Assembly (NCBI GenBank): GCA_017455845.1
Contig: JAFSYY010000119.1
Coordinates: 14,678-78,677, forward strand
Length of the DNA: 64,000 nt
Source: Prevotella sp.
GTDB taxonomy: Bacteria > Bacteroidota > Bacteroidia > Bacteroidales > Bacteroidaceae
Direction of reading: 5' to 3'
Positions 13,686 through 48,660 of this stretch are shown here, piece after piece. The position numbers were made by a program, and so were the translations under genes. The stretch's first letter is position 1. Every line of letters begins with the position of its first letter. Below the pieces are notes generated by a model. It made no database searches. It was not told where the DNA came from and worked only from the letters and a program-made list of their open reading frames with translations.

Positions 13686-13729
13686 TTACATCTTTTATAT
13701 AAGAACCACGAATAAAACGAATTACTCGA

Positions 13730-15412: not shown

Positions 15413-16489
15413 ATGAAACGGCATCCAGGTTTATTCTTTATTATTTGTTATCTTTTATTTAGCCCCGCAGCGTCGCTCTGGGCACAGGGTCCTAACGGCA
15501 GTGCCAAATACTACAGTGCGGCCGACGGCAAGTGTGGCGCAGAACTGAAGACGGCACTCTGCAGCATCATCAGCACAGGCACTGTCAAGCGTACCTATGC
15601 TCAGTTGTGGAACGACTTCAAGAAGACCGACAAGCGGGCCGACGGCAAGGTGTGGGATATGTACAGCAATGCCACCAACTTCACCTTCGGCACCGACCAG
15701 GACAAAGGCAGCCACCCGGAGGAGGGCTATTCGTACAACCGCGAGCATTCCTTCCCCAACAGTTGGTGGGGCGGCACGGATGATGAGGCGCAATATACCG
15801 ACCTGTTCCATCTCTATCCCACCGATGCCTTTGTCAACGAGAAACGCTCGAACTATCCCTTCGGCGAGACCAAGGGCAACAAATACAAATCCAACGACGG
15901 GTTCTCAAAACTGGGCACCTGCACCACTGCCGGTTATACAGGGGTCGTCTTTGAACCTAACGACGAGTATAAGGGCGACTTCGCACGCACCTATTTCTAT
16001 ATGGTCACGCGCTATGAGGAGCAAATCACCTTGTGGAAGGGTGCCAGCCATACCCTCGACGGCAATAAATACCCCGGACTGAAGAAATGGCAACTGGACA
16101 TGCTGTTGCGCTGGGCGGAACAAGACCCCGTGAGCGAAAAGGAGATAAACCGCAACAAGGCCGTCTATGGCATCCAGAAAAACCGCAACCCCTTTATCGA
16201 CTATCCCGGGCTGGAGCGCTTTATATGGGGCGACAAGACTGACGTGCCCTTCGACTATACCGGACTGCGCTTCTTCATGGCCGGCGACATCAACGACGAC
16301 GGCCTGGTGGATGTGAGCGACTATATCGGCGTGGCCAACTATATCCTCGGACAAACGCAGGAAGGCTTCAACGAGCAGGCTGCCGACGTGAACAACGACG
16401 GCAACATCGACGTGAGCGACTATATCGGCATCGCTAACATCATCCTCACCGGTTCTATCTACGGCAACAGCACCTCGAACCCTGAATAG
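15413..16489 (+). CDS. Endonuclease I family secreted nuclease 3 with C-terminal dockerin-like duplicated EF-hand
   Basis: NREHSFPNSW, KGDFARTYFYM, NRNPFIDYP; GDINDDGLVDVSDY ... ADVNNDGNIDVSDY. Confidence 0.9.
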   Translation: MKRHPGLFFIICYLLFSPAASLWAQGPNGSAKYYSAADGKCGAELKTALCSIISTGTVKRTYAQLWNDFKKTDKRADGKVWDMYSNATNFTFGTDQDKGSHPEEGYSYNREHSFPNSWWGGTDDEAQYTDLFHLYPTDAFVNEKRSNYPFGETKGNKYKSNDGFSKLGTCTTAGYTGVVFEPNDEYKGDFARTYFYMVTRYEEQITLWKGASHTLDGNKYPGLKKWQLDMLLRWAEQDPVSEKEINRNKAVYGIQKNRNPFIDYPGLERFIWGDKTDVPFDYTGLRFFMAGDINDDGLVDVSDYIGVANYILGQTQEGFNEQAADVNNDGNIDVSDYIGIANIILTGSIYGNSTSNPE

Positions 16490-21939: not shown

Positions 21940-23670
21940 CTATCTGAACACAATGTAGAGTGCCGCCATGACCACAGCAAGGGCAACCCAGAGGGCCACG
22001 GGCAGGCGTGAGGGGCGCTCATGGATGGGAGCCGGTATGTCGTAACGGGTCTTGTCGCGGTCAGTGAGCGAGATGACAACCATGGCGACAATGAGGATGG
22101 CAAAGAGGTAGAACGACAGCAGCATGAAGTGGGGCCAGTGGAATGAGAGTTGAGGGATGAGAGTTGAGAGTTGAGGGATGAGAGTTGAGAGTTGAGGGAT
22201 GAGAGTTGAGAGTTGAGGGATGAGAGTTGAGAGATGAATCTCCTGCGGCCCCCAGAGGTAGAGGATGCCTATGATGAGGCAGAAGGCGGTGCCTGCGGTG
22301 AGTGCGATGTTGGCAGCGCGTCGTGTGGTGCGCCGCCAGAAGACGCCCATCACGAAGACGGCGGCCATGGGTGGTGCGATGAAGCCTAACACCGACTGGA
22401 AGATATTAAAGAGGTTGAGACCCTTGATGCTGTCGATAGCCACGGTGAGGACGATGGCCAGGAGTGCGCCAACGACGGTAACAATACGGCCTATGTAGTT
22501 TAGATGGCGGGAGGGGGGTGCCGACAGGGAACTGCCGGGAGTGGTGGCGGGGTGGGAGAGGGGACCCGACGCTGACGCGCCGGGAGTGGTGGCTGGGCGG
22601 GGGCGGAGGTGCTTCATGTAGATGTCCATGGTGAAGACGGTGCTCAGGGCGTTGAGGGCCGAGCCGATGGTTGACACCAGGCAGGCTGTGAGCACAGCAA
22701 AGACCAGTCCTACCATGCCTTTGGGGAAGAGATTCTCTACCATCGTGAGATAGGCTTCGTCGGGATTGTCCAGGGTGTCGCCGAAGAGTGCGAAACAGAT
22801 GATTCCCGGGAGTATATAGAGCACCACGTCGAGTATCTTCAGCCAGCCGGTGAAGTTGGTGCCGAGTTGTCCTTCGCGAAGATTCCTGGCGGCCAGCACG
22901 GGCTGCACCATCGACTGGTCGGTACACCAGAACCATATCCCCATGACGGGATAGCCCAGTACGATGGGCAGCCAGGGGAAGGCCTCGTCGCTGTTGGGTT
23001 TGAACATCACCCAGTAGTCGGCCGGCACCTTGTCGGCCAGTGCTGCCAGGCCTCCCACACGGTCTAGTCCTACGACGACGAGTGCTGCCGACACGACAAT
23101 CAAGAGTATCATCTGGTAGACATTGGTGTAGGCCACCGCCTTCAGTCCTCCGAGCATGGTGAAGAAGGCAGAGATGAGCAACAGGACGAGTGCCGATGCC
23201 CACATCGGTATGTCGAAGACCTGCCTGATGAGTATGCCGCCTGCAAAGAGTGTGAGTGCGAGCCATGAGATGATGATGGTGACGATGGTGTACCATGCCA
23301 GGATGTTGCGTGTGGACTGTCCGTAGCGCAGTCCCATGAACTCGGGCAGGGTATGCACCTTTGCGCCCAGATAGCGCGGTGCAAAGACGAAGGCCAGGAG
23401 TGCAATGAAGATGAAGGCATACCAGGCGTAGTTGCCACTGACGATGCCTGTAGTGAAGCCTGCCGAGGCCGAGGCGATGAGCATCGACGGCCCCACATTG
23501 GTGCCCCACATTGAGAATCCGATATGATGCCAGCGCAGCGAGTGCTCTGCCAGGAAGAGGGTGCTGCCCTTCTTCCGTTTCGTACTGGCCCACAGGCCGA
23601 TGGCCATGAGTACTGCGAAATAAATTCCCAAGATCAGCCAGTCAAGGCTTTGCATGTAATGGCTTTCCAT
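21940..23670 (-). CDS. Sodium:solute symporter (SGLT-like sugar transporter)
   Basis: GGLKAVAYT, WFWCTDQSMVQ, many TM segments; carries LSTLIPQ x4 and PATTPG insertions. Confidence 0.92.
   Translation of the reverse strand: MESHYMQSLDWLILGIYFAVLMAIGLWASTKRKKGSTLFLAEHSLRWHHIGFSMWGTNVGPSMLIASASAGFTTGIVSGNYAWYAFIFIALLAFVFAPRYLGAKVHTLPEFMGLRYGQSTRNILAWYTIVTIIISWLALTLFAGGILIRQVFDIPMWASALVLLLISAFFTMLGGLKAVAYTNVYQMILLIVVSAALVVVGLDRVGGLAALADKVPADYWVMFKPNSDEAFPWLPIVLGYPVMGIWFWCTDQSMVQPVLAARNLREGQLGTNFTGWLKILDVVLYILPGIICFALFGDTLDNPDEAYLTMVENLFPKGMVGLVFAVLTACLVSTIGSALNALSTVFTMDIYMKHLRPRPATTPGASASGPLSHPATTPGSSLSAPPSRHLNYIGRIVTVVGALLAIVLTVAIDSIKGLNLFNIFQSVLGFIAPPMAAVFVMGVFWRRTTRRAANIALTAGTAFCLIIGILYLWGPQEIHLSTLIPQLSTLIPQLSTLIPQLSTLIPQLSFHWPHFMLLSFYLFAILIVAMVVISLTDRDKTRYDIPAPIHERPSRLPVALWVALAVVMAALYIVFR
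22144..22233 (-). repeat. In-frame 3x7-bp array encoding (LSTLIPQ)4
   Basis: tgagagt tgaggga tgagagt repeated with a 21-bp period. Confidence 0.95.
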
Positions 23671-23704
23671 ATTTTTTTCTTTCTATTTATTTAGTTCCTC
23701 TATC

Positions 23705-26116
23705 TTAAACGATTGCACTACCCTTGAAATCTTTGGTGATGTCGATGGTGACGGCGCGGCTGAGGTCCATGTCGTCGGTAGAGTCGACATCGTAGGGATA
23801 GAGGGGGATGGTGGCACCTTCGCGTACGAAGACGGGCATCTCTTCCAGCGGCACCTCCACGTCGTAGTACCACCGGCCTCCCTCCAGGCGTTCGCCGGTG
23901 AAGAAGTTGACCCAGGTTTGAGGGGCGAGGTGCGAGGGAGGGGGCTCGGCGGAAAGCCGTCGGGAGTGGTGGCAGGGGTGAGGGGTGAGAGATGGCAGGT
24001 AGATGTCTCTTTTCCCTTCGCTGTTCATCACCGGACATACCAGGAAGTCGGAGCCGAAGTAATACTCGTCGTCGATATGCCAGCACTGGCGGTCTGCGGG
24101 ATGGTGGATGAGCAGGGCTCTTATCATAGGATAGCCGCTGCTGCACGACTGCTTTGACTGTTCGATGATATAGGGTAGAAGCGCATAGCGCAGTTTCCAC
24201 CAGCGCTTCACGATGGGTGCTACCTCCGGGTAGTGCCACGGCTCGCGCTTGAAACTGCCGTGGTAGCGTATGTGTGATGAGAAGACCCCAAACTGCGTCC
24301 ACCTGACGTAGACCTCCGGGTCGAGGGGCGAGTTCATGAAGTCGGGCGTGCTGTGGAACCCCGGCACGTCGTGGCTCCAGAAGGCGAAGCCTGAGAGTCC
24401 GAGGTGCAGCCCTCCCTTCAGTGAGCCTGCCATGCCAGCCCATGACGACTCGCTGTCGCCGCCCCAGTGCAGCGGGTATCGCTGGCATCCGGCCCAGGCT
24501 GCGCGTGCCCAGATGATGCCGTCGCCGGTCACCTCGCGTGTCACCTCGTAGGCGGCCCGTTGGTAGAGCAGGGCGTAGAGATTATTGAGATGTTCGGGCG
24601 TGGAGGCATGGTAGTGGTGGTCGATGTGGATATTCTCGCCGAAGTCGGTCTTGATGCATTTCACGCCCATCTGCAAGAGTGGCTTCAGCAGTTTGTTCTT
24701 ATACCAATCGGTGGCTTTGTCGTAGGTAAAGTCGATGGTGCCGGCATAGTCGAGGGAAGAGAAATTGGAGGAGGACTCGGCGGACGAGGACCCTGCGGGA
24801 AAACCGCAGGGCACGGGCTGGCTGATGTAGTGATTCTGTTTGGCTTCGGTGATCTGTTCTGCTCCTGCTGCGATGTATGGCAGTTGCCAGAGCGACACCT
24901 TGAAGCCCTGGTCGGCCAGGCGCTGTATAAAGCCCTTGGGGTCGGGGAAGCGCTCGGGGTTGAACTTCCACTCGCAGAGCCAGTCGGTGCGAAACCAGCC
25001 GGTGTCGAGATGGATGACGTCGCAGGGATAGTGCTCGGCGCGTAAACGGTTGCAGATGGCGCTCACCTCCTCGTCGGAGAAATAGGTCATGCGGCTCATC
25101 CATATACCGAAACTCCATAGCGGCGGCATGGCGGGGAAGCCCGTGAGCATGCGGTAGCGTCGGAGGATGGCCTCTGGCGTGTCGCCTCCAATGAGGAACA
25201 CGTCGATTGTAGCCCTGTCGTTGAGGAACTGCACGCTGCGTGTGCTATGGTCGGCGAGCGACAGTTTGCAGTAGTCGCTGGTATGGAAGAAGGCTCCGTA
25301 CATACGGCTCGACAGGTAGAACGGTATGCTCTTGTAGCATCGGCGGTTGTTGACACCCTGTCCGTCTTGGTTCTTCAGAAAGAACGACTGTCCGCTGAGG
25401 TCCATCTTGCGGAAACGCTCGCCGGTGCCCACGAAACACTCGTCTGGCTGGCAGCGGAAGGAGATGGTGGCACGCTCCGTGGCGCATGGCGTGGCACCGC
25501 CTCGGCTTACGAAACCGAGGGGCAGGGCATCGTAGCGTGGTGGCGAGAAATGGTCGTCGCTCAGGGCTATGGGCTTCTGTTCGTTGCCATCGGGAAAGAA
25601 GGTGATGAAGGGTGCCGGCTGCGGTGCTGGCTGTAGGTCGCTCCAATGGTCGGTGACAGGCTCTCTGAGGTCTATGTAGCCCACCTTCTTCCCGTTTGCT
25701 ATAAGGTGATACTGCGCAGCGGGTGCTGTCTCCAAACCTTGCGTGGCCTCCTGCCTGCAGGACAGGGAAGGCTCGCCTCCTACGGAACGGAGGGAGAGGG
25801 GTATGCGCTTCACCTCGGTCGAGAAGAGGAGCATGTCGTCGCTCTCTGTCATCACGTCGCCGACCATCGTGGTGAAGAGACGGATGATGTCTGGCTCGTA
25901 GGCACGGACGATGAGGTCGAACGACTGCCGGGGGACGCTCTCGTCGGGGGCCATGTCCTCCTGGTGCTTCTGCTGCTGGTAGGGTATGGTGATGATGATG
26001 TCGCCGTTGCACTCCCAGACCTGCGAGGGGGCGTGGGCTTTCCATAGATACTCGGGCTTGGCCAGCGTGGGGTCGAAGTCCATGAAGTCAAAAAGATGAT
26101 AGTTGGTATAGTTCAT
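23705..26116 (-). CDS. GH31 alpha-xylosidase-like glycosidase, no signal peptide
   Basis: IHLDTGW, IKTDFGE (YicI-type nucleophile), HWGGD, WSHDVPGF. Confidence 0.9.
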   Translation of the reverse strand: MNYTNYHLFDFMDFDPTLAKPEYLWKAHAPSQVWECNGDIIITIPYQQQKHQEDMAPDESVPRQSFDLIVRAYEPDIIRLFTTMVGDVMTESDDMLLFSTEVKRIPLSLRSVGGEPSLSCRQEATQGLETAPAAQYHLIANGKKVGYIDLREPVTDHWSDLQPAPQPAPFITFFPDGNEQKPIALSDDHFSPPRYDALPLGFVSRGGATPCATERATISFRCQPDECFVGTGERFRKMDLSGQSFFLKNQDGQGVNNRRCYKSIPFYLSSRMYGAFFHTSDYCKLSLADHSTRSVQFLNDRATIDVFLIGGDTPEAILRRYRMLTGFPAMPPLWSFGIWMSRMTYFSDEEVSAICNRLRAEHYPCDVIHLDTGWFRTDWLCEWKFNPERFPDPKGFIQRLADQGFKVSLWQLPYIAAGAEQITEAKQNHYISQPVPCGFPAGSSSAESSSNFSSLDYAGTIDFTYDKATDWYKNKLLKPLLQMGVKCIKTDFGENIHIDHHYHASTPEHLNNLYALLYQRAAYEVTREVTGDGIIWARAAWAGCQRYPLHWGGDSESSWAGMAGSLKGGLHLGLSGFAFWSHDVPGFHSTPDFMNSPLDPEVYVRWTQFGVFSSHIRYHGSFKREPWHYPEVAPIVKRWWKLRYALLPYIIEQSKQSCSSGYPMIRALLIHHPADRQCWHIDDEYYFGSDFLVCPVMNSEGKRDIYLPSLTPHPCHHSRRLSAEPPPSHLAPQTWVNFFTGERLEGGRWYYDVEVPLEEMPVFVREGATIPLYPYDVDSTDDMDLSRAVTIDITKDFKGSAIV

Positions 26117-26119
26117 AAT

Positions 26120-27649
26120 TCACAATTCATAATTCATAATTAACAACTTCGGACCGGGGTGGTTGACACCTATATCGTCGCGGTGCAGGGGGCGGATGGT
26201 GGCGGGAAAACCGCCAACCACACTGTTCCCGCTGATGGTGAAGCCGTCGGTGCGGGCATCGAGGTAGATGGGGAAGGCACGGTAGTTGGTGGCGTAAGGG
26301 GCGGGGAAGGGCTCGGATATGATGTTGTCGGTGATGTGTGAGCCAGGCTGGTTGGAGAGGGTGTAGATGCCACCGGCATCATAGAGTTGGCGGGCATAGT
26401 CGCTCACGCTGTTGCCTTCGATAATGTTTCCCGTCATACCCGTGTTGTGGGGTGTCCACCCCCATCCTATGCAGATGCCGCTGTAGTTCACGTGGCTGAC
26501 GCTGTTGCCCCTGATGGTGCACTCCCGGGCATAGCCTACGCCGATGCCCACGGTCCCCCAGTCTTCGTTGGCTGCATCATGGATCATATTATTCAGAATG
26601 TTCAGGCCAACACATTTGCCGGCCAGGTCGGTGTAGGGCCGGTGCACCTCCCGGGGGCTCTCGGCAAACGAGCCGGCCATGATGGCCGTGCCGCCGATGT
26701 CCTCGAATGTGCAGTCGGCAATTGTGCCGCCGTCGATGCTCTCGTAGTCGAGTGCCGTGGCGCCGAGATGACGGAAGCGGCAGTTCTTGAAGTCTACCAG
26801 GCGGGCGTTGCGCACGGTGACGGCACTGACGGGCCGTTCTATCCATGCCTGGTTCTCCAGCCCCTGGTCCCAGGGCAGCCCCTCATGCTCTTTCAACTTA
26901 TAAGCATCGACAAGGGGGAAGCCGCCCTGCAGGGTGACATGCCCCTTGTGCAGTGGGCGGTTCCAGCAGGTGTGTTCAAAGGTTATGCCTTCGAAGGTGA
27001 CATGGTTGGCACCGTCGATGACGACCAACTGTTCTATGCCGTCGCGCTGCTCGGTGGTTCTCAGCAGGAATGACGAGTTGCCCCGTTCGCCTCCAATGAC
27101 GGGCTGCGGCCAGGGATGGTCGAACTCCAGGCGGCTTTCAGGCTCTTTGAACGACACCACGGCAACGGAATCGCCCTGCATGCTAATCGCCTTGACGCGC
27201 AGGATGGCAATGGCCCACCGCTGGTGGACTATCATTTCGAGGTACGAGGTACGGGGGTACGAGGTACGGGGGTGTGATGGAATGGTGATGGTGCGTGCCT
27301 CCTTGTTGAAACTAATCATACGCTCCATGCCTTCCTTGGGGAAGACCTGAGTGTGCTGCTGCCTGGGGTCGCCGCAGATGACGGTGCCCTCCTCACCCTT
27401 GATAATAGTGGGCGACTCCGGCGTTCCGCTGTCCTCCGGCCGCAGGAACAGCGGCTCGCTCATATAGTATCGGCCAGCCTTTACCGTGATGATGATGCCG
27501 CCGTTGCAGCGCGGGTCTTGTGTGCGCCGCCACTCACGAGCCTGACGCAGGGCCTCGTGCAGGTCTTGGTTCGGGCCTACGATAATCTCGCCGGCTTCAG
27601 ACAGACAGGTTGTCAGCAATAACAACAGGCAGAAAAGTGTTCGTTTCAT
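26120..27649 (-). CDS. Right-handed beta-helix glycosidase (GH141-like)
   Basis: Start moved to ATG 27649 (MKRTLFCLLLLLTTCLSEA). LFLRPEDSGT, QRWAIAILRVK, YSGICIGWGW, DAGGIYTL. Confidence 0.7.
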   Translation of the reverse strand: MKRTLFCLLLLLTTCLSEAGEIIVGPNQDLHEALRQAREWRRTQDPRCNGGIIITVKAGRYYMSEPLFLRPEDSGTPESPTIIKGEEGTVICGDPRQQHTQVFPKEGMERMISFNKEARTITIPSHPRTSYPRTSYLEMIVHQRWAIAILRVKAISMQGDSVAVVSFKEPESRLEFDHPWPQPVIGGERGNSSFLLRTTEQRDGIEQLVVIDGANHVTFEGITFEHTCWNRPLHKGHVTLQGGFPLVDAYKLKEHEGLPWDQGLENQAWIERPVSAVTVRNARLVDFKNCRFRHLGATALDYESIDGGTIADCTFEDIGGTAIMAGSFAESPREVHRPYTDLAGKCVGLNILNNMIHDAANEDWGTVGIGVGYARECTIRGNSVSHVNYSGICIGWGWTPHNTGMTGNIIEGNSVSDYARQLYDAGGIYTLSNQPGSHITDNIISEPFPAPYATNYRAFPIYLDARTDGFTISGNSVVGGFPATIRPLHRDDIGVNHPGPKLLIMNYEL

Positions 27650-27742
27650 ACCATAAAGACGCGAAAAAAAGCAAAATGTCATCATTACAGATAGTGACAA
27701 AACAGGTTTTTCAACGTCTTTTATCAAAAAAGGAAGAAAAAG

Positions 27743-28750
27743 ATGGCGCAGAACATGAGACAATGGGTGGCCGATGTCATTCGGCGCAAGGACGTGACAG
27801 CACTGCCGGTGATGACACATCCGGGCATAGAACTCAACGGAGACACGGTCAGAGAGGCCGTCAGTAATGGCGTTGTTCACTATCGGGCGGTGCAAGCCCT
27901 GGCCAACCGCTATCGGTCGGCAGCGGCGGTAACCATCATGGACCTGACTACCGAGGCAGAGGCTTTCGGTGCAGAGGTGCTCTTCAGCGACGATGCCGTG
28001 CCTACTGTGGCGGGGCATCTGCTGTCGGGGCCCGACGCTATTCGCCGTCTTGAAGTGCCCTCTCTGTCCTCGGGGCGTATTCCTGCCTATCTGAAAGCCA
28101 ATCTGCTGGCTGCACGGCATATCACCGACAGACCGGTCTTCGCAGGGTGTATAGGTCCGTATTCCCTGGCGGGCCGACTATACGACATGTCAGAACTGAT
28201 GATGCTCATCTACGAGAATCCCGATGCCGCCCATCTGCTGCTCAGTAAATGCACTGCGTTTATAAGGAAATACTGTATGGCACTGAAAGAGACGGGAGCG
28301 GGAGGCGTGATGATGGCAGAGCCTGCGGCAGGACTCTTGTCTGAGCACGATTGCCAGACCTTCTCTTCTGACTATGTGCGCTATATCGTAGAGCAGGTAC
28401 AGTCGGACGATTTCATGGTGATACTCCATAATTGTGGCAACACCGGCCATTGTACGCGTGCCATGGTGAGCACCGGTGCGGCGGCATACCATTTCGGCAA
28501 TAAGTGTAAGATGAAAGACGTGGCCCGTGAGGTGCCGCCCACGGCCCTCGTTATGGGTAATATCGATCCCGTCAGCATCTTCAAGGATGGCTCCCCCGAG
28601 GAGATGCGTCATGCGGTCGCGGTCCTGCTGGAGGAGATGAACAACTATCCCAACTTTGTTCTCTCCAGCGGTTGCGACACACCGCCTCATACACCACTGG
28701 CCAATATCGACGCTTTCTTCAGCGCTTTGGAAATGTTTAATAGCCAATGA
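27743..28750 (+). CDS. MtaA/CmuA-like methylcobamide methyltransferase (UroD fold)
   Basis: EAEAFGA, GPYSLA, Zn motif ILHNCG, GNIDP, LSSGCD. Confidence 0.88.
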   Translation: MAQNMRQWVADVIRRKDVTALPVMTHPGIELNGDTVREAVSNGVVHYRAVQALANRYRSAAAVTIMDLTTEAEAFGAEVLFSDDAVPTVAGHLLSGPDAIRRLEVPSLSSGRIPAYLKANLLAARHITDRPVFAGCIGPYSLAGRLYDMSELMMLIYENPDAAHLLLSKCTAFIRKYCMALKETGAGGVMMAEPAAGLLSEHDCQTFSSDYVRYIVEQVQSDDFMVILHNCGNTGHCTRAMVSTGAAAYHFGNKCKMKDVAREVPPTALVMGNIDPVSIFKDGSPEEMRHAVAVLLEEMNNYPNFVLSSGCDTPPHTPLANIDAFFSALEMFNSQ

Positions 28751-29385
28751 CACAGAAGACGCTTGACTATGATGCTTTAGGGATAACGCCTGCCGATGTC
28801 TATGAGCAGATGGGGTATCACGGCGCTGAGCCTGACGAGGCGACACGATGCGAGACGTATGCAGTCATCCGCGAGGTGACACCCTGGCTGCGGCCCCGGT
28901 TCTGCTATCAGGTGGTGCGTGAACGGCCAGCCTTTGATATGGGCAAGATTATCCTGGGTCAACTGCGCGGCTCGGAGGCCTATGCTCTCTTTATCTGTAC
29001 CGCTGGCACGGAGTATGAGGCTTATCAGCAGCAGTTGAAGGAAGAGGGCGACATGGTGCGCCTCTTTATTGCCGATGCGCTGGGCAGTGTCGTTGCCGAG
29101 AAGTGTGCCGACCGGATGGAAGAGCACCTGCAACAGACCATCGACAAACTGGGATGGCACCACACCAACCGCTTCTCGCCCGGCTACTGCGGCTGGCATG
29201 TCTCCCAGCAACAGTTGCTCTTCCCGCTTTTCGGAGGACAGACCTGTGGCGTCCGTCTCACCGACTCGTCGCTCATGCTTCCCATCAAGAGCGTCAGCGG
29301 CATCGTCGGCATAGGCGAAAAAGTCCGCAGGCTTGACTATACCTGCGGACTCTGCGACCTCAAGCAGTGCTATAAGCGCCGTTGA
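28747..29385 (+). CDS. Stand-alone MetH-type B12 activation (AdoMet-binding) domain protein
   Basis: FICTAG, DALGS, RFSPGYCGW, MLPIKSVSG; C-terminal CGLCDLKQC. Confidence 0.82.
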   Translation: MTQKTLDYDALGITPADVYEQMGYHGAEPDEATRCETYAVIREVTPWLRPRFCYQVVRERPAFDMGKIILGQLRGSEAYALFICTAGTEYEAYQQQLKEEGDMVRLFIADALGSVVAEKCADRMEEHLQQTIDKLGWHHTNRFSPGYCGWHVSQQQLLFPLFGGQTCGVRLTDSSLMLPIKSVSGIVGIGEKVRRLDYTCGLCDLKQCYKRR

Positions 29386-29412
29386 GAATTTAGATTCAAG
29401 TTTCGTAAGTGC

Positions 29413-31458
29413 TCAACTTGATGTAGTTGAGTTCCTTTCTCTAAGCAGTTGCTTGGCTACGGTGACGGCCGAGTTGGCATTGTCGCTGTAGCCGTCGGCA
29501 CCAATCTCGTCGGCAAAGCCCTGAGTGACAGGGGCACCGCCCACCATCACCTTCACCTGCTGGCGGATGCCCGCCTGCTCCAGGGCATCGATGACCTCTT
29601 TCATATAGGGCATCGTGGTGGTGAGCAAGGCCGACATGCAGAGGATGTCGGGCTGGTTTTCCTTGACAGCCTGGATAAAGGTATCGGCAGAGACATCGAT
29701 GCCTACATTGACGACCTCGAAGCCACAGCCCTCCAGCATCGAGGCCACGAGGTTCTTGCCAATGTCGTGGAGGTCGCCCTTCACCGTGCCGATAACCACC
29801 TTTCCTATCGATGTAGAGACGGTTCCTGCCAACATCGGCTTGAGGATGTCGAGGGCGGCCTTCATGGCACGGCCGGCCATCAGCAACTGGGGCACGAAAG
29901 CCTTGCCGTCCTGAAACCGTTGGCCCACCTCGCCCATGGCGGTAATCATCTGCTGATTGATGAGTGACTGCGGGTCGGCTCCGGCGACGACGGCCTCGCG
30001 GGTGGCGGCAACGGCGGCATCGCTCTTGCCAGCGACGATGGCCTCATAAAGGGAATTTGAGGATTGAGAATTCAGAATTGAGGATTGAGAATTCAGAATT
30101 GAGGATTGGGAATGAGGAATTGAGGATTGAGAATTCGGAATTGAGGATTGAGAATTCGGAATTGAGGATTGGGAATTATCAATCTTTAAAACGATTTCTT
30201 CTACCTTTGATATTATTTTTTCAACCTCTTTTTCCACCTCCTCATCTGTAAGTTCATCACCAGCAGAACTATCTACTCCCCTCTCCCTGGGAGAGAGGCC
30301 GGGGATGAGGCTGTTGGGGGGGAGACTGGGCCTGGAAGCGAGGCTGGGTCTGGAAGTGATACTCTCTACGATGCGCAGCGCCTCCTCCACCTCCTGCTCG
30401 TTGTGGAAGTCCATCTCAATGTGTACGCCATTGGTGCCGATGGCATCGAGGAGCGGGCGCAGTTCGGGCAGCGTCACCCAGCATGCCATCACGCTCTTGC
30501 CGGCAGCAAGGATGCGGCGGTAGAGGTCGTACCACTTCGTACTGCCTCCCTGTGGCTGTCCTACGCCTGGTGTCCACTGGATGGCATTGAGTTCATCGAT
30601 TTCCAGAAGGGCGGGCAGGTGGCGCATGGCTCCTACGCCGTCAAGGTGATAGAGGGTGTAGGGTATGCGCTGGCACTGCTCACGGATGAACGGCTGTACG
30701 AAACGGCGGTAGTCGTCCTCGCTGATCATCGTAGAGATGTCGCTCTGCAACTTCGACATCTTGCCGGGGGCCCAGGAGGAGAAGTAGCAGAAGGCCATCT
30801 CGTCGCCCTCGCGGATGATGTCGTAGAGTTCGTCGAAGACACGGAAGTAGATGTCGTTAATCTGCTGCACCTGCCGCTCCACCACCTCGGGTTGCATCAC
30901 CGTGTCCATGAGCACGCGATCGGTGCCCTCCAGGGCGGCCAGCACGTCGAGGCCCTCCATGAGGTCGGGCATGCCCACGTAGTAGTGACCCTGGGCTTTC
31001 TGCTTACATGCCTTCAGCAAGTCCTTGTGCAGCAGCCAGTTGGGGTGATGGGGGTCGAAGGTGATATCACCTACGGCAAAACCGTCTGTCGTCCCGTGTT
31101 CAGCGGTTTTCCCGCTGAAGTCAGGGTTGGGATGTATCCAGATGGTGTCCTCGCCGCCCTCGAAGACACCGCCGAGGATGGCCGCCAGCGACCCCGGGCC
31201 CAGTTGTGTATTGGCTACGGGCAGCATGTCGGCCTTCAGGCATGAATGTGCCACGTACCAGTCCAGATAGTCAGCACGCCACTTCGCATCAAACCATTTC
31301 TGGTTTAAGTCCTTCGGGGGCGGCGGTGCAGGGATGTCGGCATGGGGTGTGACACCCTCCTGGAAGTGCTCCCACATATTTATTATTATACCCCGTTGAT
31401 TCCACCAGTCAACATAGCGGCGTTTCGTTTCTTCGAGATTAGTTTTCCAAGTGTTCAT
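29413..31458 (-). CDS. Fusion of a UroD-like methyltransferase domain and a cobalamin-binding corrinoid protein
   Basis: N-terminal LGPGSLA...YHLDG...IQWTPG. C-terminal cap plus GDLHDIGKNLV (DxHxxG), SALLTTT and VGGAP. Repeat-rich linker. Confidence 0.9.
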   Translation of the reverse strand: MNTWKTNLEETKRRYVDWWNQRGIIINMWEHFQEGVTPHADIPAPPPPKDLNQKWFDAKWRADYLDWYVAHSCLKADMLPVANTQLGPGSLAAILGGVFEGGEDTIWIHPNPDFSGKTAEHGTTDGFAVGDITFDPHHPNWLLHKDLLKACKQKAQGHYYVGMPDLMEGLDVLAALEGTDRVLMDTVMQPEVVERQVQQINDIYFRVFDELYDIIREGDEMAFCYFSSWAPGKMSKLQSDISTMISEDDYRRFVQPFIREQCQRIPYTLYHLDGVGAMRHLPALLEIDELNAIQWTPGVGQPQGGSTKWYDLYRRILAAGKSVMACWVTLPELRPLLDAIGTNGVHIEMDFHNEQEVEEALRIVESITSRPSLASRPSLPPNSLIPGLSPRERGVDSSAGDELTDEEVEKEVEKIISKVEEIVLKIDNSQSSIPNSQSSIPNSQSSIPHSQSSILNSQSSILNSQSSNSLYEAIVAGKSDAAVAATREAVVAGADPQSLINQQMITAMGEVGQRFQDGKAFVPQLLMAGRAMKAALDILKPMLAGTVSTSIGKVVIGTVKGDLHDIGKNLVASMLEGCGFEVVNVGIDVSADTFIQAVKENQPDILCMSALLTTTMPYMKEVIDALEQAGIRQQVKVMVGGAPVTQGFADEIGADGYSDNANSAVTVAKQLLRERNSTTSS
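30058..30177 (-). repeat. In-frame 3x7-bp array encoding (NSQSSIP/L)n in the interdomain linker
   Basis: gaggatt gagaatt cagaatt repeats. Confidence 0.95.
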
Positions 31459-31501
31459 CGTTCTTATATGAAATAATGTGCTTCTAAATAACTAAAGTAA
31501 G

Positions 31502-31573
31502 AGACCCCACCCCTGCCCCTCCCCTTCTTGCTACCAGCGGGACGCAAGAAGGGGAGGGGCAGGGGTGGGGTCT
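31502..31573. repeat. GC-rich palindrome with a perfect 30-bp stem and 12-nt loop
   Basis: agaccccacccctgcccctccccttcttgc-taccagcgggac-gcaagaaggggaggggcaggggtggggtct. Confidence 0.95.
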
Positions 31574-31757
31574 GTATCTTGTAATTATTCATCTCTGCTT
31601 TCGGTTTAGCGAAAAGTTGCTGCAAAATTACACAAAAAGGATGAATCGCCCAAGTATTCATGAATAATTCGCAATAATTCTTTGGTTGTTCGAAAGAAAA
31701 TGCTTACTTTTGCACCCAATAGTAAACAACAAACTACTAACAAAGAATCGAAAGAAA

Positions 31758-34529: not shown

Positions 34530-37474
<2,945 letters not shown>

Positions 37475-37480
37475 TGACAG

Positions 37481-39763
37481 TTAGTAGTTTGTCTTGATGA
37501 TTTCTCCGTTGACGACAGATGCCTCTACCTGCTTGCCACTAAGGGTATAGAGCCGGAAATGGCAGTTCCACTCGCGTGGCCAGGCGGGGAAGAGGATGGG
37601 CTGGCCGTCGGGTGTATCCTGTAGAAGCATCTCCTGCAGCCCGATCATGCCTGCGCCGCCACGGTTATGGTCGGGTGCCCAGTCGAAGCCCGGTTGCCAG
37701 AAGGCCGTGAAACGGTAGGGACCGTCACTGAGTTTCTCAAGGTTCAGCCGCCGCGCCTCGTCGGTCAGTCCGAGGCAGGCCGCCCAGATATTGTCCTGCT
37801 TCCAGCCCTTCGTGCTGCGCATGGCAATGGCGTGCGGGTCTTTCCAGTAGGTGTTACGGGCGATGTCGAGGCCCGGCCGTCCCACGCCGTAGAGGCGCCA
37901 TGGGAAGACGGGGTATAGTTGCGGCGTCTCAGTGTTCTGTATGCGTGCCCAGGCCACGGCAGGGGCTATGCAGGTGTCGCCGTTGATGACCCTCAATGGG
38001 ATGTCTGGAAGGAAAGCCTCACCCCCGCCCCCTCTCCCAAGGAGAGGGGAGTTTATAGTTTTATCAGCGGAAGAACTAACTATTCCCCTCTCCTTGGGAG
38101 AGGGGGCGGGGGTGAGGCTTTCACTTACCGCTCGCAGGCCGGCGATGGTGCTGCTGGGGTTATACGCCATCTTGTAGGTCTCGCAGCCCGAGCCGGGGTA
38201 GATGATGAGGTGGCCGTTCTCGTCGAGGGCCTTCGACCCTAACCGTTTCGCCTGCCACTGGTAGTGTTCGTCGAAGAAACGAAGAATCTCATTAGCAAGA
38301 CTATATACTCCCCTCTCCTTGGGAGAGGGGCCGGGGGTGAGGCTCATCATCGCAAACTCCAGCGCGGTGTCCCACTCGTATTCCAGCCAGGCGTTGCGCT
38401 CCACGCCAAGGTCGTCACCCTCCTTGTGCTTGCCATATTCGGCGGGGTTGGGCAGTCCGAAGTTCTCTATCTGTTCGGTGAACGAGGCCCCGCCATGGCC
38501 CCAGTAGTGGCGGGTACGGGCCATGGCGTTGGGCAGCATCCGCAGGTAGGTGTTTAGTTGTGGCTGAAGTACGTCGTAGTCGCCGCTCTTCAGCAGGGGC
38601 CAATAGACCAGCCGCTGGTTCTGTGCCGTCATCGTGCCACCGCCCCATTTGCGGTAGTCGGGGGTGAACGCCATCGTCGTGTCCACGTAAACGGGGTCAA
38701 AAGTAAAGAGGCCGCCATTGAATTTCGTAGGCCATTCGCCTTTGGCGTTACAGCCCAGCATGTAGCGCATCAGTTCGTAGTTGCGAAGCATCGCCTGAAG
38801 GCTGTCGTTAGGCGTGTCGCTCACTATCCAACTGCGCTGCCAGTACTGGTGCCACCAGCGGGCAGAGCGCTTGTACGAGTCGCTGACTTTCAGATTAGGA
38901 AAAGCATACGGGCCTACGGTGCCGCATCCGTCAACCACTGTGTCCTCGTAGAGCTGATGGCGCAGATAGCGCAAGTCGATGATGATGCAGGAGGAGCGCA
39001 GGTCGTCGCACGAATAGTTCCATGCCTGATAGTCGGTGCCCGCATATTCCCCTTTGGTCGTGCCTGCATAGTGGAAGCCCGGTGCCCACATCTCGCCTTT
39101 CATCTCCAGCCCGCCGATGGGGTTGTAGAGGCTGTCTTTGATGGCATCGAGGTGTTCGTAGGCGACGGTGAAGTCGAAAACGGTCTCTTCGCGGTTCTTA
39201 TGGCTGAAGACCAGGTGGTTGTCTTCAGCCGTGATGCTGTCGGCAAAGGTCACGCAGTCCTTCGGCACCAGCCACTTATACGAGCACTGCTGGCACTCAG
39301 CCTTCGTCACGGGCCTGTCGCGGTAGCGCCAACTCTCGTAACTCAGCACCGCCTGTTGCGTATGTTGCTGTATTACAGTAATAAACACGACAGGCTGCTC
39401 CACGTCCACCCACAGGCGCACCTTCGCGCCGCCACCTCTTATATATATGCAGCCCTCGTCCAGGCACAGCCGCTGCTCGAAGTCCTGGCCGTCGAAGGGC
39501 TGGCCGTCGAGGTGCAGGCGCCAGCGGCCTGCCTTCAGCAGCGTGTTGTTCTCGTCGAACCAGCCGCTCTGCTGGGCGTAGAACAGCACATCGCCCCCTT
39601 CCACCCACACGTTCAGCCCTATGTCGTGACCGCCGCAGGGCATCGACTCACTGCTATTACGGCTCTGTGAGGTCCACACCACATCCTTCGGCATGTAGTC
39701 GGCTGCATGGGCTACTAATAAAAACAGACAGAAGAAAAAGAAACAGGACGAACGAATAGTCAT
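37481..39763 (-). CDS. DUF5703 glycosidase, GH139-like (candidate 2-O-methyl-fucosidase)
   Basis: SRNSSESMPCGGHDIGLNVWVE, PTKFNGG, DWAPDHN, QEMLLQ. The GH139 call rests on recalled similarity and on its order next to the acetylesterase and GH106. Confidence 0.65.
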   Translation of the reverse strand: MTIRSSCFFFFCLFLLVAHAADYMPKDVVWTSQSRNSSESMPCGGHDIGLNVWVEGGDVLFYAQQSGWFDENNTLLKAGRWRLHLDGQPFDGQDFEQRLCLDEGCIYIRGGGAKVRLWVDVEQPVVFITVIQQHTQQAVLSYESWRYRDRPVTKAECQQCSYKWLVPKDCVTFADSITAEDNHLVFSHKNREETVFDFTVAYEHLDAIKDSLYNPIGGLEMKGEMWAPGFHYAGTTKGEYAGTDYQAWNYSCDDLRSSCIIIDLRYLRHQLYEDTVVDGCGTVGPYAFPNLKVSDSYKRSARWWHQYWQRSWIVSDTPNDSLQAMLRNYELMRYMLGCNAKGEWPTKFNGGLFTFDPVYVDTTMAFTPDYRKWGGGTMTAQNQRLVYWPLLKSGDYDVLQPQLNTYLRMLPNAMARTRHYWGHGGASFTEQIENFGLPNPAEYGKHKEGDDLGVERNAWLEYEWDTALEFAMMSLTPGPSPKERGVYSLANEILRFFDEHYQWQAKRLGSKALDENGHLIIYPGSGCETYKMAYNPSSTIAGLRAVSESLTPAPSPKERGIVSSSADKTINSPLLGRGGGGEAFLPDIPLRVINGDTCIAPAVAWARIQNTETPQLYPVFPWRLYGVGRPGLDIARNTYWKDPHAIAMRSTKGWKQDNIWAACLGLTDEARRLNLEKLSDGPYRFTAFWQPGFDWAPDHNRGGAGMIGLQEMLLQDTPDGQPILFPAWPREWNCHFRLYTLSGKQVEASVVNGEIIKTNY
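38013..38121. repeat. In-frame palindrome with 38-bp perfect arms
   Basis: aaagcctcacccccgccccctctcccaaggagagggga ... tcccctctccttgggagagggggcgggggtgaggcttt. Confidence 0.95.
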
Positions 39764-42310: not shown

Positions 42311-45300
42311 TCAGGGGGCAGTGGTCTTCAATTCTATTGGGCCGAGAAGTCCGGCAGGCAGGAGATTGTCACCCTGGGTGCGGTATTTGGCGTTGGTCCA
42401 GATGCCGTCGTAGGGCGGCTTACCCTGGTCCATGCCTCGCAGGGCGTTGTGCCAGGTGTTCACCACCTCTATCTCTATCTTGTTCTTGCCTTTTTTCAAG
42501 GCTCCTGAAATCTCCACTTCGTATGGTGCTGTCCAGGCGATGCCACAGTCCTGGCCATTCACCCACACATGGGCGATATCCTTCACGTTGGGCATTGAGA
42601 GCCAAGCACGACCTTGCGGAACTTCGTCCTTTTTCAGTTTCAGTGCCGTCGTGTAGCGTGCATGTCCGCTGAAATACCGTATGCGGTCGTTGTCGCTCTG
42701 GCTCCAGTCAAAGAGTTGGCGTGTCTTTACTGTCTCGCCGTTCTCACGGAACGTCACCTCCCACTTCAACTTTTCACCAAGAGGTTTTGAGTATTGCCTG
42801 TTCTGACTCTCTCGCCTGGCATCCAGGATATGGAATCCTGCCATCACGAAGACAGAGCCATGTTTTTGGAGCGTGATATCTACACAACTATATTCACCCT
42901 CACGCTGCTCCCGAAACGTCATCGGAGCACCCGTGAGAGGATTTACTAATTCTGTCACATTGCTGTCAATACGGAACTTGGCCTGGAATGTGCATACCGA
43001 GTCTGTTTGGTTACTTAGGAAATAGTAATTAGTCTTCCCTGCCTTGCGGTGAGTGAAGGCGATGCCCTCGGGCAGGACTACATCGCGTGGCAGTCCTGGC
43101 AGCGTATCTGACAGCCAGGGCTCGGTAATAACGGTGATGCCACAACGTTCCAGCGAGTCAATCTTCTGCTGCGATGCTTCGCTCACCTTTGTTCCTTTCG
43201 GCACCACCAACACCCTATAGTTTGGCATATCATCATCAACAGGGTCATAGTACTTGGAAGTCCATCGCGAGAGTCCGTCGGGATTCATCGAGTCGTAATG
43301 GTAGCCGTGGAGAGGATTCACCCAGTCCTTCAGGTCAAGGATATTGGCGTTATGGCGTACGCCGACGGGCGATTCTTCCATGGGTAAACCATGGTTCGCA
43401 AGACGCTCGCGCTCGGCGGCCACGCGCTCCGCCCCGAAAAGGCCGGGCAGCATGGGCACCAGTTTGTCGGGCGTGAGGGCGCGGCGGGGCATCTCCTCGC
43501 CAGTGAAGACGGCGATGTCGACCACGGGTTTGCCCCTTTGCAGGAGTTTCTGACAGCGGGTGACATAGTCGACGAGGGCTTTTGCCTCAGGGAACCACGT
43601 CTGGTCGCGCTGGAAGAAGAGGCCGATGCCGTCGAGCGTCATGCCGGGGCGTCGGTCGGTCCATGGGTTGTGGGTAAAGACGTGGAAGAACAGGCGGTTC
43701 ATGCCCAAACAAAAATTACGGTCGAGGAGAGGCTTGATGCTCGCCGGCGTCTCGTCCCATACGCCGCGCACCTCCGTAAAGCCCTCGGCCTGAATGATGT
43801 TCTTGCCGTAGACATGGGCACCGCTGATGGCGTCGAGCATGTCGTTGGGCTTGTCGTGGGTGGGGCTGTTGAGCCAGAACTCACCCATGGGCAGGTCGGC
43901 ATAACGATAGTGCTCCATGCCGTCGCTGACCATCGTCGGGGCGACGCTCTCGCAGGAGAGCAGCACGCCGTAGTCCTTGGCCTTTTGTGCCACAGTAGCG
44001 AAGAATACCTCGCCGATAAGTTCGTTGATGGTCTTGCGGATGTCGCGCAGCACATCGTCGCTGCTCAGACCGAGGGCTTTCGCCTCGGCCATGTCATCGA
44101 CGGGGATGCCGGCATAGACGGGCATGAAAGGCAGCAGGTCGTAGCCGCGCCTTTTATGGAACTCCTCTGCGAAGTTGCGGCTCCAGTTTTGCGAGCCGCA
44201 CTCCCAGGAGTCTACGTGCATATACTTCACCACGTCGGCGTGCGGACGCTTCTTGAACTCGCCGAACCAGTGGTCTATCTGCTTGTTGACCGCCGCCGCC
44301 GAGAACTTGTCGCACTCCAGACCCTTGCCGCCGCCGGCAGTGGCGTTTGTGTGGCCCGTTGTGGTGTGGCCGAAGCGGATGGGGCGGTAAGAGACGGGAG
44401 TGGCGGGAGTGATGACGGGAGTGACGGGAGTGATAGCATTGGCGGGTATGCGCCACACGCTGCCGTTCTTGCTCTCGTACTGGTCTATGCGAGGCTCTGC
44501 CGACAGAGTCAGTTCCTTGATTTTCAGCACCGGCGACCACTTGGCGGCATCAAGGTCTTCGCTGCCCGGCTCGGTGCCCTCCGGTGTCCAGCAGAAACGG
44601 AAATGGCGTGCCGTGGTCTCTGGAAGAGCGTAGGTATAGGCCTCGTCGGTGTTCTGCCAGCCCTGACGGGGCGGCATCAGTTGGCTGATGTGGCGAAAGG
44701 CTGTGCCGTCGTCGCTGGCCTGCACAAGCAGCCGCTGGGCCTGCAGGTTGTTGCCGCTGGGCACGATGCGCAGGCTGCGCACCGTCTGCGGCTCGTCGAA
44801 ATTGTATTGGATATAGCCGGGCTCCTTGCTGCGGAAGGTTTCTTTTTCATCGCGCACGATGGTGCCGGTGATGGTGGCAGGGGCGATATTATCGCCCCAT
44901 ACAGGACAGTTGAAGGCTGCGATGTCTTCGTAGTATTCGCCGGGAGCAACGGGAGGCGACGGAAGGAGGGAGGCGATGGTGTCGCTCCACACCACCTTCT
45001 GCATAGACTCCTCGGGCGTTATCCACGGTCCGCCGGCCAGGGCGAAGCCGTCGCAGACGTGGATGCCCATCTCCAAGCCGAGGCTGTCGGCCTGCGCGAA
45101 GGCATAGTCTACCATCTGCCAGAACGCCGGTGAGAGTTGTTGCGCCTTGCCCTCGTATTCCGGTCTTTCCGACACCCCGCGGATGGGCATGAGGTAGCAG
45201 CCCCCCAGTCCCACGTCTTTCATCGCCTGCAGGTCGGCCTTGATGCCTGGCTTCGAGACGGCGCCGTACATCCAGTACCAGAAGGTCCAGGGGCGGGCGG

Positions 45301-45364
45301 TTTCCGAGCATCGCGATGACATAGCGATAAACAGGACAAAAGCGGTGATGACAAGTCTTTTCAT
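42311..45364 (-). CDS. GH106 alpha-L-rhamnosidase
   Basis: RPWTFWYWM...GIKADL, HVDSWE, PMGEFW, AHVYGK...AEGFT, SGHARY. Confidence 0.88.
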   Translation of the reverse strand: MKRLVITAFVLFIAMSSRCSETARPWTFWYWMYGAVSKPGIKADLQAMKDVGLGGCYLMPIRGVSERPEYEGKAQQLSPAFWQMVDYAFAQADSLGLEMGIHVCDGFALAGGPWITPEESMQKVVWSDTIASLLPSPPVAPGEYYEDIAAFNCPVWGDNIAPATITGTIVRDEKETFRSKEPGYIQYNFDEPQTVRSLRIVPSGNNLQAQRLLVQASDDGTAFRHISQLMPPRQGWQNTDEAYTYALPETTARHFRFCWTPEGTEPGSEDLDAAKWSPVLKIKELTLSAEPRIDQYESKNGSVWRIPANAITPVTPVITPATPVSYRPIRFGHTTTGHTNATAGGGKGLECDKFSAAAVNKQIDHWFGEFKKRPHADVVKYMHVDSWECGSQNWSRNFAEEFHKRRGYDLLPFMPVYAGIPVDDMAEAKALGLSSDDVLRDIRKTINELIGEVFFATVAQKAKDYGVLLSCESVAPTMVSDGMEHYRYADLPMGEFWLNSPTHDKPNDMLDAISGAHVYGKNIIQAEGFTEVRGVWDETPASIKPLLDRNFCLGMNRLFFHVFTHNPWTDRRPGMTLDGIGLFFQRDQTWFPEAKALVDYVTRCQKLLQRGKPVVDIAVFTGEEMPRRALTPDKLVPMLPGLFGAERVAAERERLANHGLPMEESPVGVRHNANILDLKDWVNPLHGYHYDSMNPDGLSRWTSKYYDPVDDDMPNYRVLVVPKGTKVSEASQQKIDSLERCGITVITEPWLSDTLPGLPRDVVLPEGIAFTHRKAGKTNYYFLSNQTDSVCTFQAKFRIDSNVTELVNPLTGAPMTFREQREGEYSCVDITLQKHGSVFVMAGFHILDARRESQNRQYSKPLGEKLKWEVTFRENGETVKTRQLFDWSQSDNDRIRYFSGHARYTTALKLKKDEVPQGRAWLSMPNVKDIAHVWVNGQDCGIAWTAPYEVEISGALKKGKNKIEIEVVNTWHNALRGMDQGKPPYDGIWTNAKYRTQGDNLLPAGLLGPIELKTTAP

Positions 45365-48559: not shown

Positions 48560-48660
48560 TCTTTTTTTATAGGAAATACTTTTTTATAGGACGCACAACT
48601 TGCGCTTTTGTACCTGTTACAAATCGAATGTTTATGCGTCATAAATATAAAACAGACGAT

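Follow-up and report, generated by a model that had tools for sequence, protein, structure and literature searches.

A predicted cobalamin-dependent sugar O-demethylation module in a rhamnogalacturonan II-type pectin locus of Prevotella sp.

A group of six genes at positions 21940–31458 of a 64,000-nucleotide stretch of Prevotella sp. DNA (contig JAFSYY010000119.1 of assembly GCA_017455845.1; this whole stretch is referred to below as the window) may well encode a module for the vitamin B12-dependent O-demethylation of the 2-O-methyl-xylose of rhamnogalacturonan II (RG-II), alone or linked to fucose, with transfer of the methyl group to a thiol. We consider this particular reading fairly probable, and a further, clearly smaller share of our confidence goes to variants that retain sugar demethylation in some other form. 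An earlier note on the same DNA had proposed that a methylated sugar is imported, demethylated via cobalamin and split by a GH31 enzyme; this account was supported overall, and within it we infer the identity of the methyl sugar and the order of the steps, with demethylation preceding hydrolysis.

The gene identities, folds, motifs, fusions, co-occurrence and domain loss described below are observations, and the reactions are predicted. In the predicted pathway, a GH141-like enzyme would free the disaccharide outside the cytoplasm, and a sodium:solute symporter (SSF) would import it, probably as 2-O-methyl-xylosyl-fucose. The His/Asp metal site of a barrel resembling uroporphyrinogen decarboxylase (UroD) would then bind the ether oxygen, as suggested by its fold, motif and fusions, and the methyl group would pass to the cob(I)alamin of the fused domain. 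An MtaA-like His-Cys-Cys enzyme would methylate a thiol, and the fused MetH homocysteine domain of most Prevotella-type relatives would additionally make methionine directly; by analogy, the acceptor is probably homocysteine, or another thiol. The GH31 enzyme would split the demethylated Xyl-Fuc into xylose and fucose, and a MetH activation-domain protein (Act) would restore oxidised cobalamin in place of the ATP-dependent activator RACo.

All six genes named in the earlier note are present and match their families in Pfam and profile scans, and they are arranged in three blocks, not in a single operon. The first block, on the minus strand, runs leftward from the secreted GH141-like gene (26120..27649; with a signal peptide), a BT0338-type paralogue of the RG-II fucosidase BT1002, through the cytoplasmic GH31 gene (23705..26116), an orthologue of PDB 5F7C with catalytic motifs and the WAR arginine present, to the BT0341-type SSF symporter (21940..23670; PF00474, E 6e-49). 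The second block, on the plus strand, runs rightward from a 93-base divergent gap before the GH141 block and comprises the MtaA-like zinc methyltransferase (27743..28750; PF01208, best PDB match MtaA 4AY7) and the 212-aa Act (28747..29385; PF02965), whose gene overlaps the MtaA-like stop codon. The third block is the UroD-like/corrinoid fusion gene (29413..31458, minus strand; 681 aa), convergent on Act. It encodes a 350-aa N-terminal UroD-fold barrel (30400..31458) with His271-x-Asp273, Asp240 and Asp171, a low-complexity linker of NSQSSI repeats (30060..30400) at the position of the homocysteine-methyltransferase domain of close relatives, and a cap plus cobalamin-binding domain with the motif GDLHDIG (29413..30060; PF02607 and PF02310 at residues 469–665).

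The barrel had no Pfam match and no sequence match in the PDB (best E 0.27), and a phylum-wide search with the single sequence gave only three weak matches in 300 genomes. Its predicted model (pLDDT 94.6) matched MtaA/UroD structures in Foldseek with an E value of 4e-7 and aligned with MtaA at a Z score of 19.9 and an rmsd of 3.3 Å over 285 residues, with 9% identity. The His271-x-Asp273 pair stands at the position of the MtaA His-x-Cys and is almost invariant among aligned homologues (His271 in 94/95, Asp273 in 95/95). According to the part of PMC10418091 available to us, a carboxylate-for-Cys substitution is characteristic of O-methyltransferases, and His-Cys-Cys of S/Se-methyltransferases. 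The GDLHDIG sequence of the corrinoid domain conforms to the DxHxxG motif, and this domain scores highest with the methylamine/betaine corrinoid families.

The domain partners of the barrel bear on the direction of methyl transfer. Of the 120 top-scoring database proteins, 111 have a fused homocysteine S-methyltransferase domain. Among 354 genome loci, the 80 best were analysed; in 66 of them this domain lies between the barrel and the B12 domain, always with the zinc motifs GxNC and GGCCG; 13 loci, of Bacteroides/Phocaeicola type, are without it, and one further locus is cut. A distant protein type (P0271) unites a pterin-binding methyltransferase, a corrinoid domain and the barrel; 35 of its 79 loci are at least 18 kb long, and these carry a different GH31 in 30/35 cases and RACo in 24/35, many of them near-copies, while one P0271 locus carries a xylulokinase. 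Because the barrel pairs with either acceptor module, homocysteine or folate, it is best read as the donor half, that is, likely a donor-side methyltransferase with a predicted sugar O-methyl:corrinoid activity.

Other arrangements were also found. A 1249-aa protein (locus L232) has a degenerate pterin barrel (E 9e-4) behind its homocysteine domain, a sign that the N-terminal half of MetH may have been captured, and one cluster (G659) contains an unrelated stand-alone homocysteine methyltransferase with 27% identity. In a quick tree of homocysteine domains, those of MetH nest among the fused ones, with the number of origins left unsettled. The barrel and the corrinoid protein are encoded by separate genes in five of nine further loci beyond the 80; in five genomes with such separate genes (L102–L106), the cluster adjoins putative cobU/cobT/cobS cobamide-salvage genes, as read by sequence. 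Extra UroD-like genes adjoin the module in L110 (4131-5189) and L234 (1747-3087), the latter encoding a thioredoxin-like tail and standing beside a CobW gene where an MtaA-like gene would usually be.

The MtaA-like protein carries a His-x-Cys...Cys site formed by His229, Cys231 and Cys311, with H229 and C231 retained in 98% and C311 in 100% of 50 orthologues, and is predicted to be the corrinoid-to-thiol, acceptor-side enzyme. Its orthologues (53–58% identity) pair with different UroD-like barrels in xylan and fucoside settings. Seven genomes of the family have the MtaA-like gene without the barrel; in three of the four loci read, it follows GH67 immediately and a different UroD-like protein is encoded close by (L123:5319-8395, L124:6668-10812 and L126:7560-11733; the UroD-like gene adjoins in L124 and L126 and is 5 kb off in L123, with CE15 and GH10 present in L124 as well). 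The substrate of GH67 and CE15 contains 4-O-methyl-glucuronate, on which they act, and the GH67-linked set is a candidate B12 demethylase for this xylan sugar. The fourth locus (L125:2488-10719) holds, in one run, GH29, a corrinoid protein, the MtaA-like gene, Act, RhaT, a GH95-like gene and a third UroD-like gene, a candidate demethylase set for a methyl-deoxyhexose. Separately, the MtaA-Act pair adjoins glyA in three genomes of the L102–L106 genus (L128, L130, L131).

These pairings suggest that one acceptor/activator core is combined with interchangeable donor barrels that serve different methyl sugars. They lead to a broader proposal, which we regard as evenly poised between right and wrong: a Bacteroidales family of oxygen-free, B12-dependent sugar O-demethylases with swappable UroD-fold barrels and a shared MtaA-like enzyme and Cys-rich reactivase, in which the barrel would have replaced the folate domain of MetH in most Prevotella, so that the methyl groups of plant fibre would go straight into methionine, and the one RG-II bond still uncleaved would be opened. 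As part of the same joint claim, with the same even balance, the barrel substrates would be 2-O-methyl-xylose here and 4-O-methyl-glucuronate or methyl-fucosides elsewhere.

The MtaA-like protein could also be a second donor. In this alternative, which we consider unlikely but worth weighing, the barrel and the MtaA-like protein would each demethylate one sugar, 2-O-Me-Xyl and 2-O-Me-Fuc, or 2-O-Me-Fuc would be the main substrate, and the acceptor step would fall to a homocysteine or folate domain that is either fused or supplied by MetH. It would accommodate the retention of the MtaA-like gene in genomes that have the homocysteine fusion (G450, G327, G353), the nearby GH139, the fucose isomerase that adjoins the module in two families, and the homocysteine and pterin domains of the source MetH. 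The His-Cys-Cys site fits thiol activation instead, the occurrence of the MtaA-like protein with different barrels is what would be expected of a shared acceptor enzyme and not of a sugar-specific one, and the barrel tracks the xylosidase-like GH31 (14/14) but not GH139 (14/27).

Act has a TM0269-like fold (TM-score of 0.79 to 1J6R) and matched 1MSK with an E value of 3e-17, the profile including one canonical row. Its N-terminal part is shortened in comparison with canonical activation domains, and R142, G146 and Y147 of its RFSPGY motif are invariant in 27 rows, the canonical copy included. Cysteines 148, 200, 203 and 208, the last three forming a C-terminal CxxCxxxxC, are found in all 26 short copies and are absent from the canonical one, and they suggest an added metal site. 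The use of S-adenosylmethionine by Act is plausible, with a metal or Fe-S redox role as an open alternative. Neither RACo nor RACE was found in the source genome (68% complete), and among the module genomes RACo was present in 3/33 as against short Act in 33/33, in line with the replacement of the ATP-dependent activator proposed in the earlier note. The source MetH is split: a 926-aa homocysteine-pterin-cap-B12 protein is encoded at C121:84561-87338, and its activation domain apart at C42:5317-6141. Since this separate canonical activation protein serves MetH, Act is probably a dedicated reactivase of the module. That Act serves the split MetH was considered and set aside in view of the canonical copies in the source genome and in four of five others, G308 having the short copy only.

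The GH31 enzyme lacks a hydrophobic N-terminus, as had been noted from its missing signal peptide: the best 10-residue hydropathy is 0.13, against 2.67 for GH141. It aligns over its full length with PDB 5F7C (1135 bits), which we take to be BT0339, and its closest characterised relative is the alpha-xylosidase YicI. The KTDFGE and WGGD motifs are kept, and the WAR arginine and both catalytic aspartates align with those of YicI. The enzyme scores 452 bits to NF007940 (cut-off 606) versus 217 to the alpha-glucosidase model. In GH31 enzymes this conserved arginine binds a free 2-OH, and a 2-O-methyl group would block this contact.

The position of this arginine also bears on the order of the steps. 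If the order were reversed, GH31 would cleave the methylated xyloside first and free 2-O-methyl-xylose would be demethylated afterwards. The exact co-occurrence of GH31 and the barrel would suit this order too, as would the distinct subgroup formed by the GH31 orthologues (65–73% identity inside, 42–45% to the next paralogues); set against the alignment of the arginine and both aspartates with YicI, however, we find the reversed order distinctly unlikely, and demethylation before hydrolysis is preferred.

The true start of the GH141-like protein is MKRTLF, and it scores 339 bits to BT1002 (PDB 5MQP); a second GH141 gene of the source genome lies on contig C91. BT_0338 is classed as GH141 in PMC8264420, of which a part was available. 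In P. vulgatus, redundant GH141 copies respond to RG-II, according to the accessible portion of bioRxiv 2026.03.13.711244, and the genome of this species has two GH141 genes, one of them inside this cluster; as a sign of induction of the cluster, this response is only suggestive. An SSF symporter adjoins the barrel also in distant Bacteroidales families, and it is the predicted importer of the methylated sugar fragment.

The earlier note had suggested a comparison of synteny, and here all five partners were found within 10 kb of the barrel in 21 of the 43 relative loci at least 20 kb long (out of the 80), so the grouping of the module genes is not due to chance. In one sample of 200 same-family genomes, in which the barrel-positive ones belong to four genera and kin are not independent, the barrel was found in 14, the GH31 orthologue in 14, GH139 in 27, the MtaA-like gene in 21 and Act in 26. 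The barrel and the GH31 orthologue occurred in exactly the same 14/200 genomes, and all 14 also hold GH139, the MtaA-like gene and Act, even where the MtaA-Act pair has been relocated. At the level of the order, 16/250 genomes matched, 11 of them closely and across eight families; nine of these 11 have the GH31 orthologue at a distance of at most two genes from the barrel, and of the remaining two, one is cut by a contig end and one is without GH31 in 20 kb. Several of the order-level loci sit among RG-II-type genes or beside a fucose isomerase gene, which adjoins the module in G630 and G524.

The cluster BT0338-BT0343 of B. thetaiotaomicron, cited in the earlier note, does exist, and its labels fit the gene types of the window in the gene order of B. 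xylanisolvens locus L047 (GH141-GH31-fusion-SSF-Act-MtaA, followed by proteins read as RpiB, transketolase and GH51). A partial view of Table S1 of Martens 2011 (PMC3243724) also bears on the transcriptional check that the note had proposed, because the B. thetaiotaomicron orthologues are induced there on pectin. All of BT0338-43 are 34–361-fold up in two adjacent pectin columns, in the listed order 76.5/33.8, 107.5/142.6, 42.4/68.9, 211.6/360.8, 47.6/143.2 and 82.1/154.5-fold; five of the six genes are also 10–16-fold up in a later column, and the arabinan and galactan columns, as far as visible, give no value for them. These columns come from a collapsed PDF layout, in which their identity is assigned and not labelled. 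The second column was assigned to RG-II because genes for arabinose share it and because the RG-II locus BT0977-1031 has the same two-column pattern as BT0338-43 (PMC3243724). The main text of Martens 2011, in the part at hand, contains no mention of the cluster; BT0338 appears in the Liu 2021 supplements only in an unrelated cefoxitin row; and literature searches, whose coverage left out most subscription papers, returned no paper assigning sugar demethylation to this cluster.

The current label of the cluster is a different one. The accessible part of PMC8941943 lists BT_0340/0342/0343 as Mta methylamine corrinoid proteins, and if this label were right, methylamines, or methanol set free by pectin esterases, would be the source of the methyl group, with the sugar genes as mere neighbours. 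The best scores of the corrinoid domain, with methylamine/betaine families, agree with this, and pectin does release methanol. The label, however, derives from the carrier domain alone, and the barrel is UroD-like. MtaB and MttB belong to families other than the UroD-like one. Moreover, the GH31 orthologue is within two genes of the barrel in 9/11 close order-level matches, a different GH31 accompanies the folate-linked version, and methanol needs no symporter. We therefore consider a methylamine or methanol substrate quite improbable and retain a methylated sugar as the substrate.

The fusion in the window is without the homocysteine domain: the preceding helix of its relatives is kept and is followed by the NSQSSI repeats. 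In a FastTree phylogeny of 95 barrel rows (two apparent duplicates and one cut row omitted), the window barrel nests within the homocysteine-fused group, with local supports of 86–93, none starred, and the sole homocysteine domain found in the source genome is that of MetH on contig C121. Contigs of two other studies bridge the junction, the only difference being 42 bases of repeat; an assembly artefact at this point was thereby ruled out. From these sequence comparisons, the domain is judged to have been secondarily lost in this species. One short repeat stands at the deletion point, and in-frame short repeats (NSQSSI, TPGPSPKERG-type, PATTPG) occur in many window genes, e.g. at 29413-31700 and 22000-26100. 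Such a loss could mean that the module has decayed and is non-functional in this species, a reading to which the nested position of the barrel, the deletion bridged by contigs of two other runs and the nearby GH78 split by a frameshift would lend themselves. Against it, none of the six frames is interrupted and their catalytic motifs are intact, the Bacteroides/Phocaeicola versions (13/80 loci) are also without the domain, and in B. thetaiotaomicron the genes show strong induction; decay is the least probable of the alternatives considered, and a functional module is retained.

Several points weigh against B12-dependent demethylation of the RG-II sugar. The barrel shares merely 9% identity with MtaA and its third metal ligand was not found; the MtaA-like protein scores far below the cut-offs of the MtaA families (129 vs 244, 116 vs 235 and 106 vs 400 bits) and is retained even where a homocysteine domain is fused; and 5F7C was deposited as an alpha-glucosidase. 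Co-occurrence among neighbours and kin is no independent evidence. The barrel is absent from 13/27 GH139-positive genomes, and the module is therefore not needed for RG-II use. The first induced column of PMC3243724, with its layout as described, could be rhamnogalacturonan I or homogalacturonan. The 2-O-Me-Xyl-α1,3-Fuc linkage, cited in the earlier note as the one not cleaved by B. thetaiotaomicron, is indeed given in the seen part of PMC7939467 as the uncleaved bond and as the one RG-II linkage without an assigned enzyme, and the same source reports that the wild type accumulates 2-O-Me-Xyl-Fuc in spent medium. This disaccharide was also purified from cultures of B. cellulosilyticus, which may or may not carry the module (bioRxiv 2026.03.13.711244, seen in part). 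Since the disaccharide accumulates, flux through the pathway is at best partial under those conditions, and our guess is that limited B12 or a small thiol sink lies behind the accumulation.

The surroundings of the module bear out the RG-II-type pectin setting of the earlier note. The upstream neighbours are a PL1-like lyase, a split GH78, GH139, an acetylesterase, GH106 and GH2, so that RG-II-specific enzymes nearby include GH139, GH106, GH141, GH78, GH2 and the acetylesterase. The GH139 gene (37481..39763, minus strand) encodes a BT0984-type 2-O-methyl-fucosidase orthologue with 789 bits to 9HYQ, and the GH106 gene (42311..45364, minus strand) a rhamnosidase orthologue with 1191 bits to 5MQM, which is presumably BT0986; the two lie 6–14 kb from the module and give it a real pectin context. 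GH139 is described in the visible part of PMC12282258 as the sole family with activity on 2-O-methyl-fucose and as a feature of RG-II degraders.

The GH78 rhamnosidase gene (34530-37474, minus strand) consists of two overlapping frames of 403 and 678 aa, with a short repeat close by; the split reflects either a frameshift or an assembly error. A PL1-like pectate lyase gene (31686-34520, plus strand; weak PelZ match only) stands as an insertion between GH78 and the fusion gene, and in close relatives GH78 is directly upstream of the fusion gene without this insertion. A second SSF symporter gene (48481-50127, plus strand) has a 53% relative in L233 that adjoins a dihydrodipicolinate synthase-family aldolase, and this pairing resembles BT2813/BT2814, 184–275-fold up in the same pectin columns of Martens 2011, as far as these could be seen; the symporter is possibly a candidate for uptake of 3-deoxy-D-manno-octulosonate (Kdo) or 3-deoxy-D-lyxo-heptulosarate (Dha). 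Three tandem secreted proteins with related N-termini and, by eye, an endonuclease I-type look, one of them with a dockerin-like tail, are encoded at 12105-16489 (plus strand). SusC/SusD were not found among the 25 window proteins scanned of this incomplete assembly, an Rfam scan of the window gave a tRNA and no riboswitch, and sigma-70 promoter and terminator scans were near chance level. The source genome comprises 2.43 Mb, with the window on contig C75; the closest named relatives are Prevotella-type, with 80–86% identity, and the stretch was found in animal gut metagenomes.

If true, this B12-dependent demethylation would constitute an anaerobic route for sugar demethylation, tie fibre use to vitamin B12 and methionine/thiol metabolism, fill a gap in the breakdown of fibre in the gut and reassign the methylamine-labelled B12 cluster of B. 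thetaiotaomicron. The question lends itself to direct testing, since B. thetaiotaomicron is a tractable strain and the disaccharide can be obtained in pure form. For the acceptor search, ready constructs are provided by the natural series of barrel, barrel-B12, barrel-homocysteine-B12 and folate-B12-barrel proteins, together with the domain loss.

Among known systems, BT0338-BT0343 (annotated Mta/TCP2/mtbA) has the same six gene types, but in the window they are rearranged into three blocks next to GH139/GH106/GH78/GH2; the part of PMC8941943 at our disposal treats that cluster as methylamine-related, without a function shown. Removal of an O-methyl ether from a sugar is described for the CYP236A P450 in the accessible sections of PMC6292453, where methylated sugars are also said to resist gut degradation; unlike the predicted module, this enzyme requires O2 and yields formaldehyde, and the sugar O-demethylases that we found in print were oxygen-dependent P450s only. 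With MetH, the module shares the cap and cobalamin domains, the activation-domain protein and, in most relatives, a homocysteine domain that derives from MetH and whose zinc ligands are intact, but a UroD-fold barrel stands in place of the folate domain, and the window fusion is without the homocysteine domain. As in MtaA/MtbA/MtsA and in type 1 Mlp clusters, there is a His-x-Cys...Cys zinc motif and no folate methyltransferase in the cluster; the MtaA-like protein differs from the former in its low family scores, and the module differs from the latter in having one His-Cys-Cys protein, no Ram/RACE and a glycosidase instead of a selenium/sulfur setting, neither Bacteroidota nor sugars being mentioned in the available text of PMC10418091. 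The module can be classed neither as MetH nor as a true MtaA system or a type 1 Mlp cluster. In its predicted logic it resembles the Odm/Vdm/Mtv systems of acetogens and Desulfitobacterium, with the barrel as putative UroD-superfamily donor beside a corrinoid carrier, a second methyltransferase and an activator. Their substrates are aryl ethers, whereas a sugar alkyl ether is predicted here; the barrel is a separate family; the module is without RACE and has a His-Cys-Cys thiol-type enzyme instead of the folate methyltransferase II, pterin-binding enzymes of this kind being absent from the six window genes and found only in the distant P0271 fusion and in the source MetH. By analogy, the module would work like an acetogen O-demethylase, while it falls outside that class in its folate methyltransferase II and RACE components.

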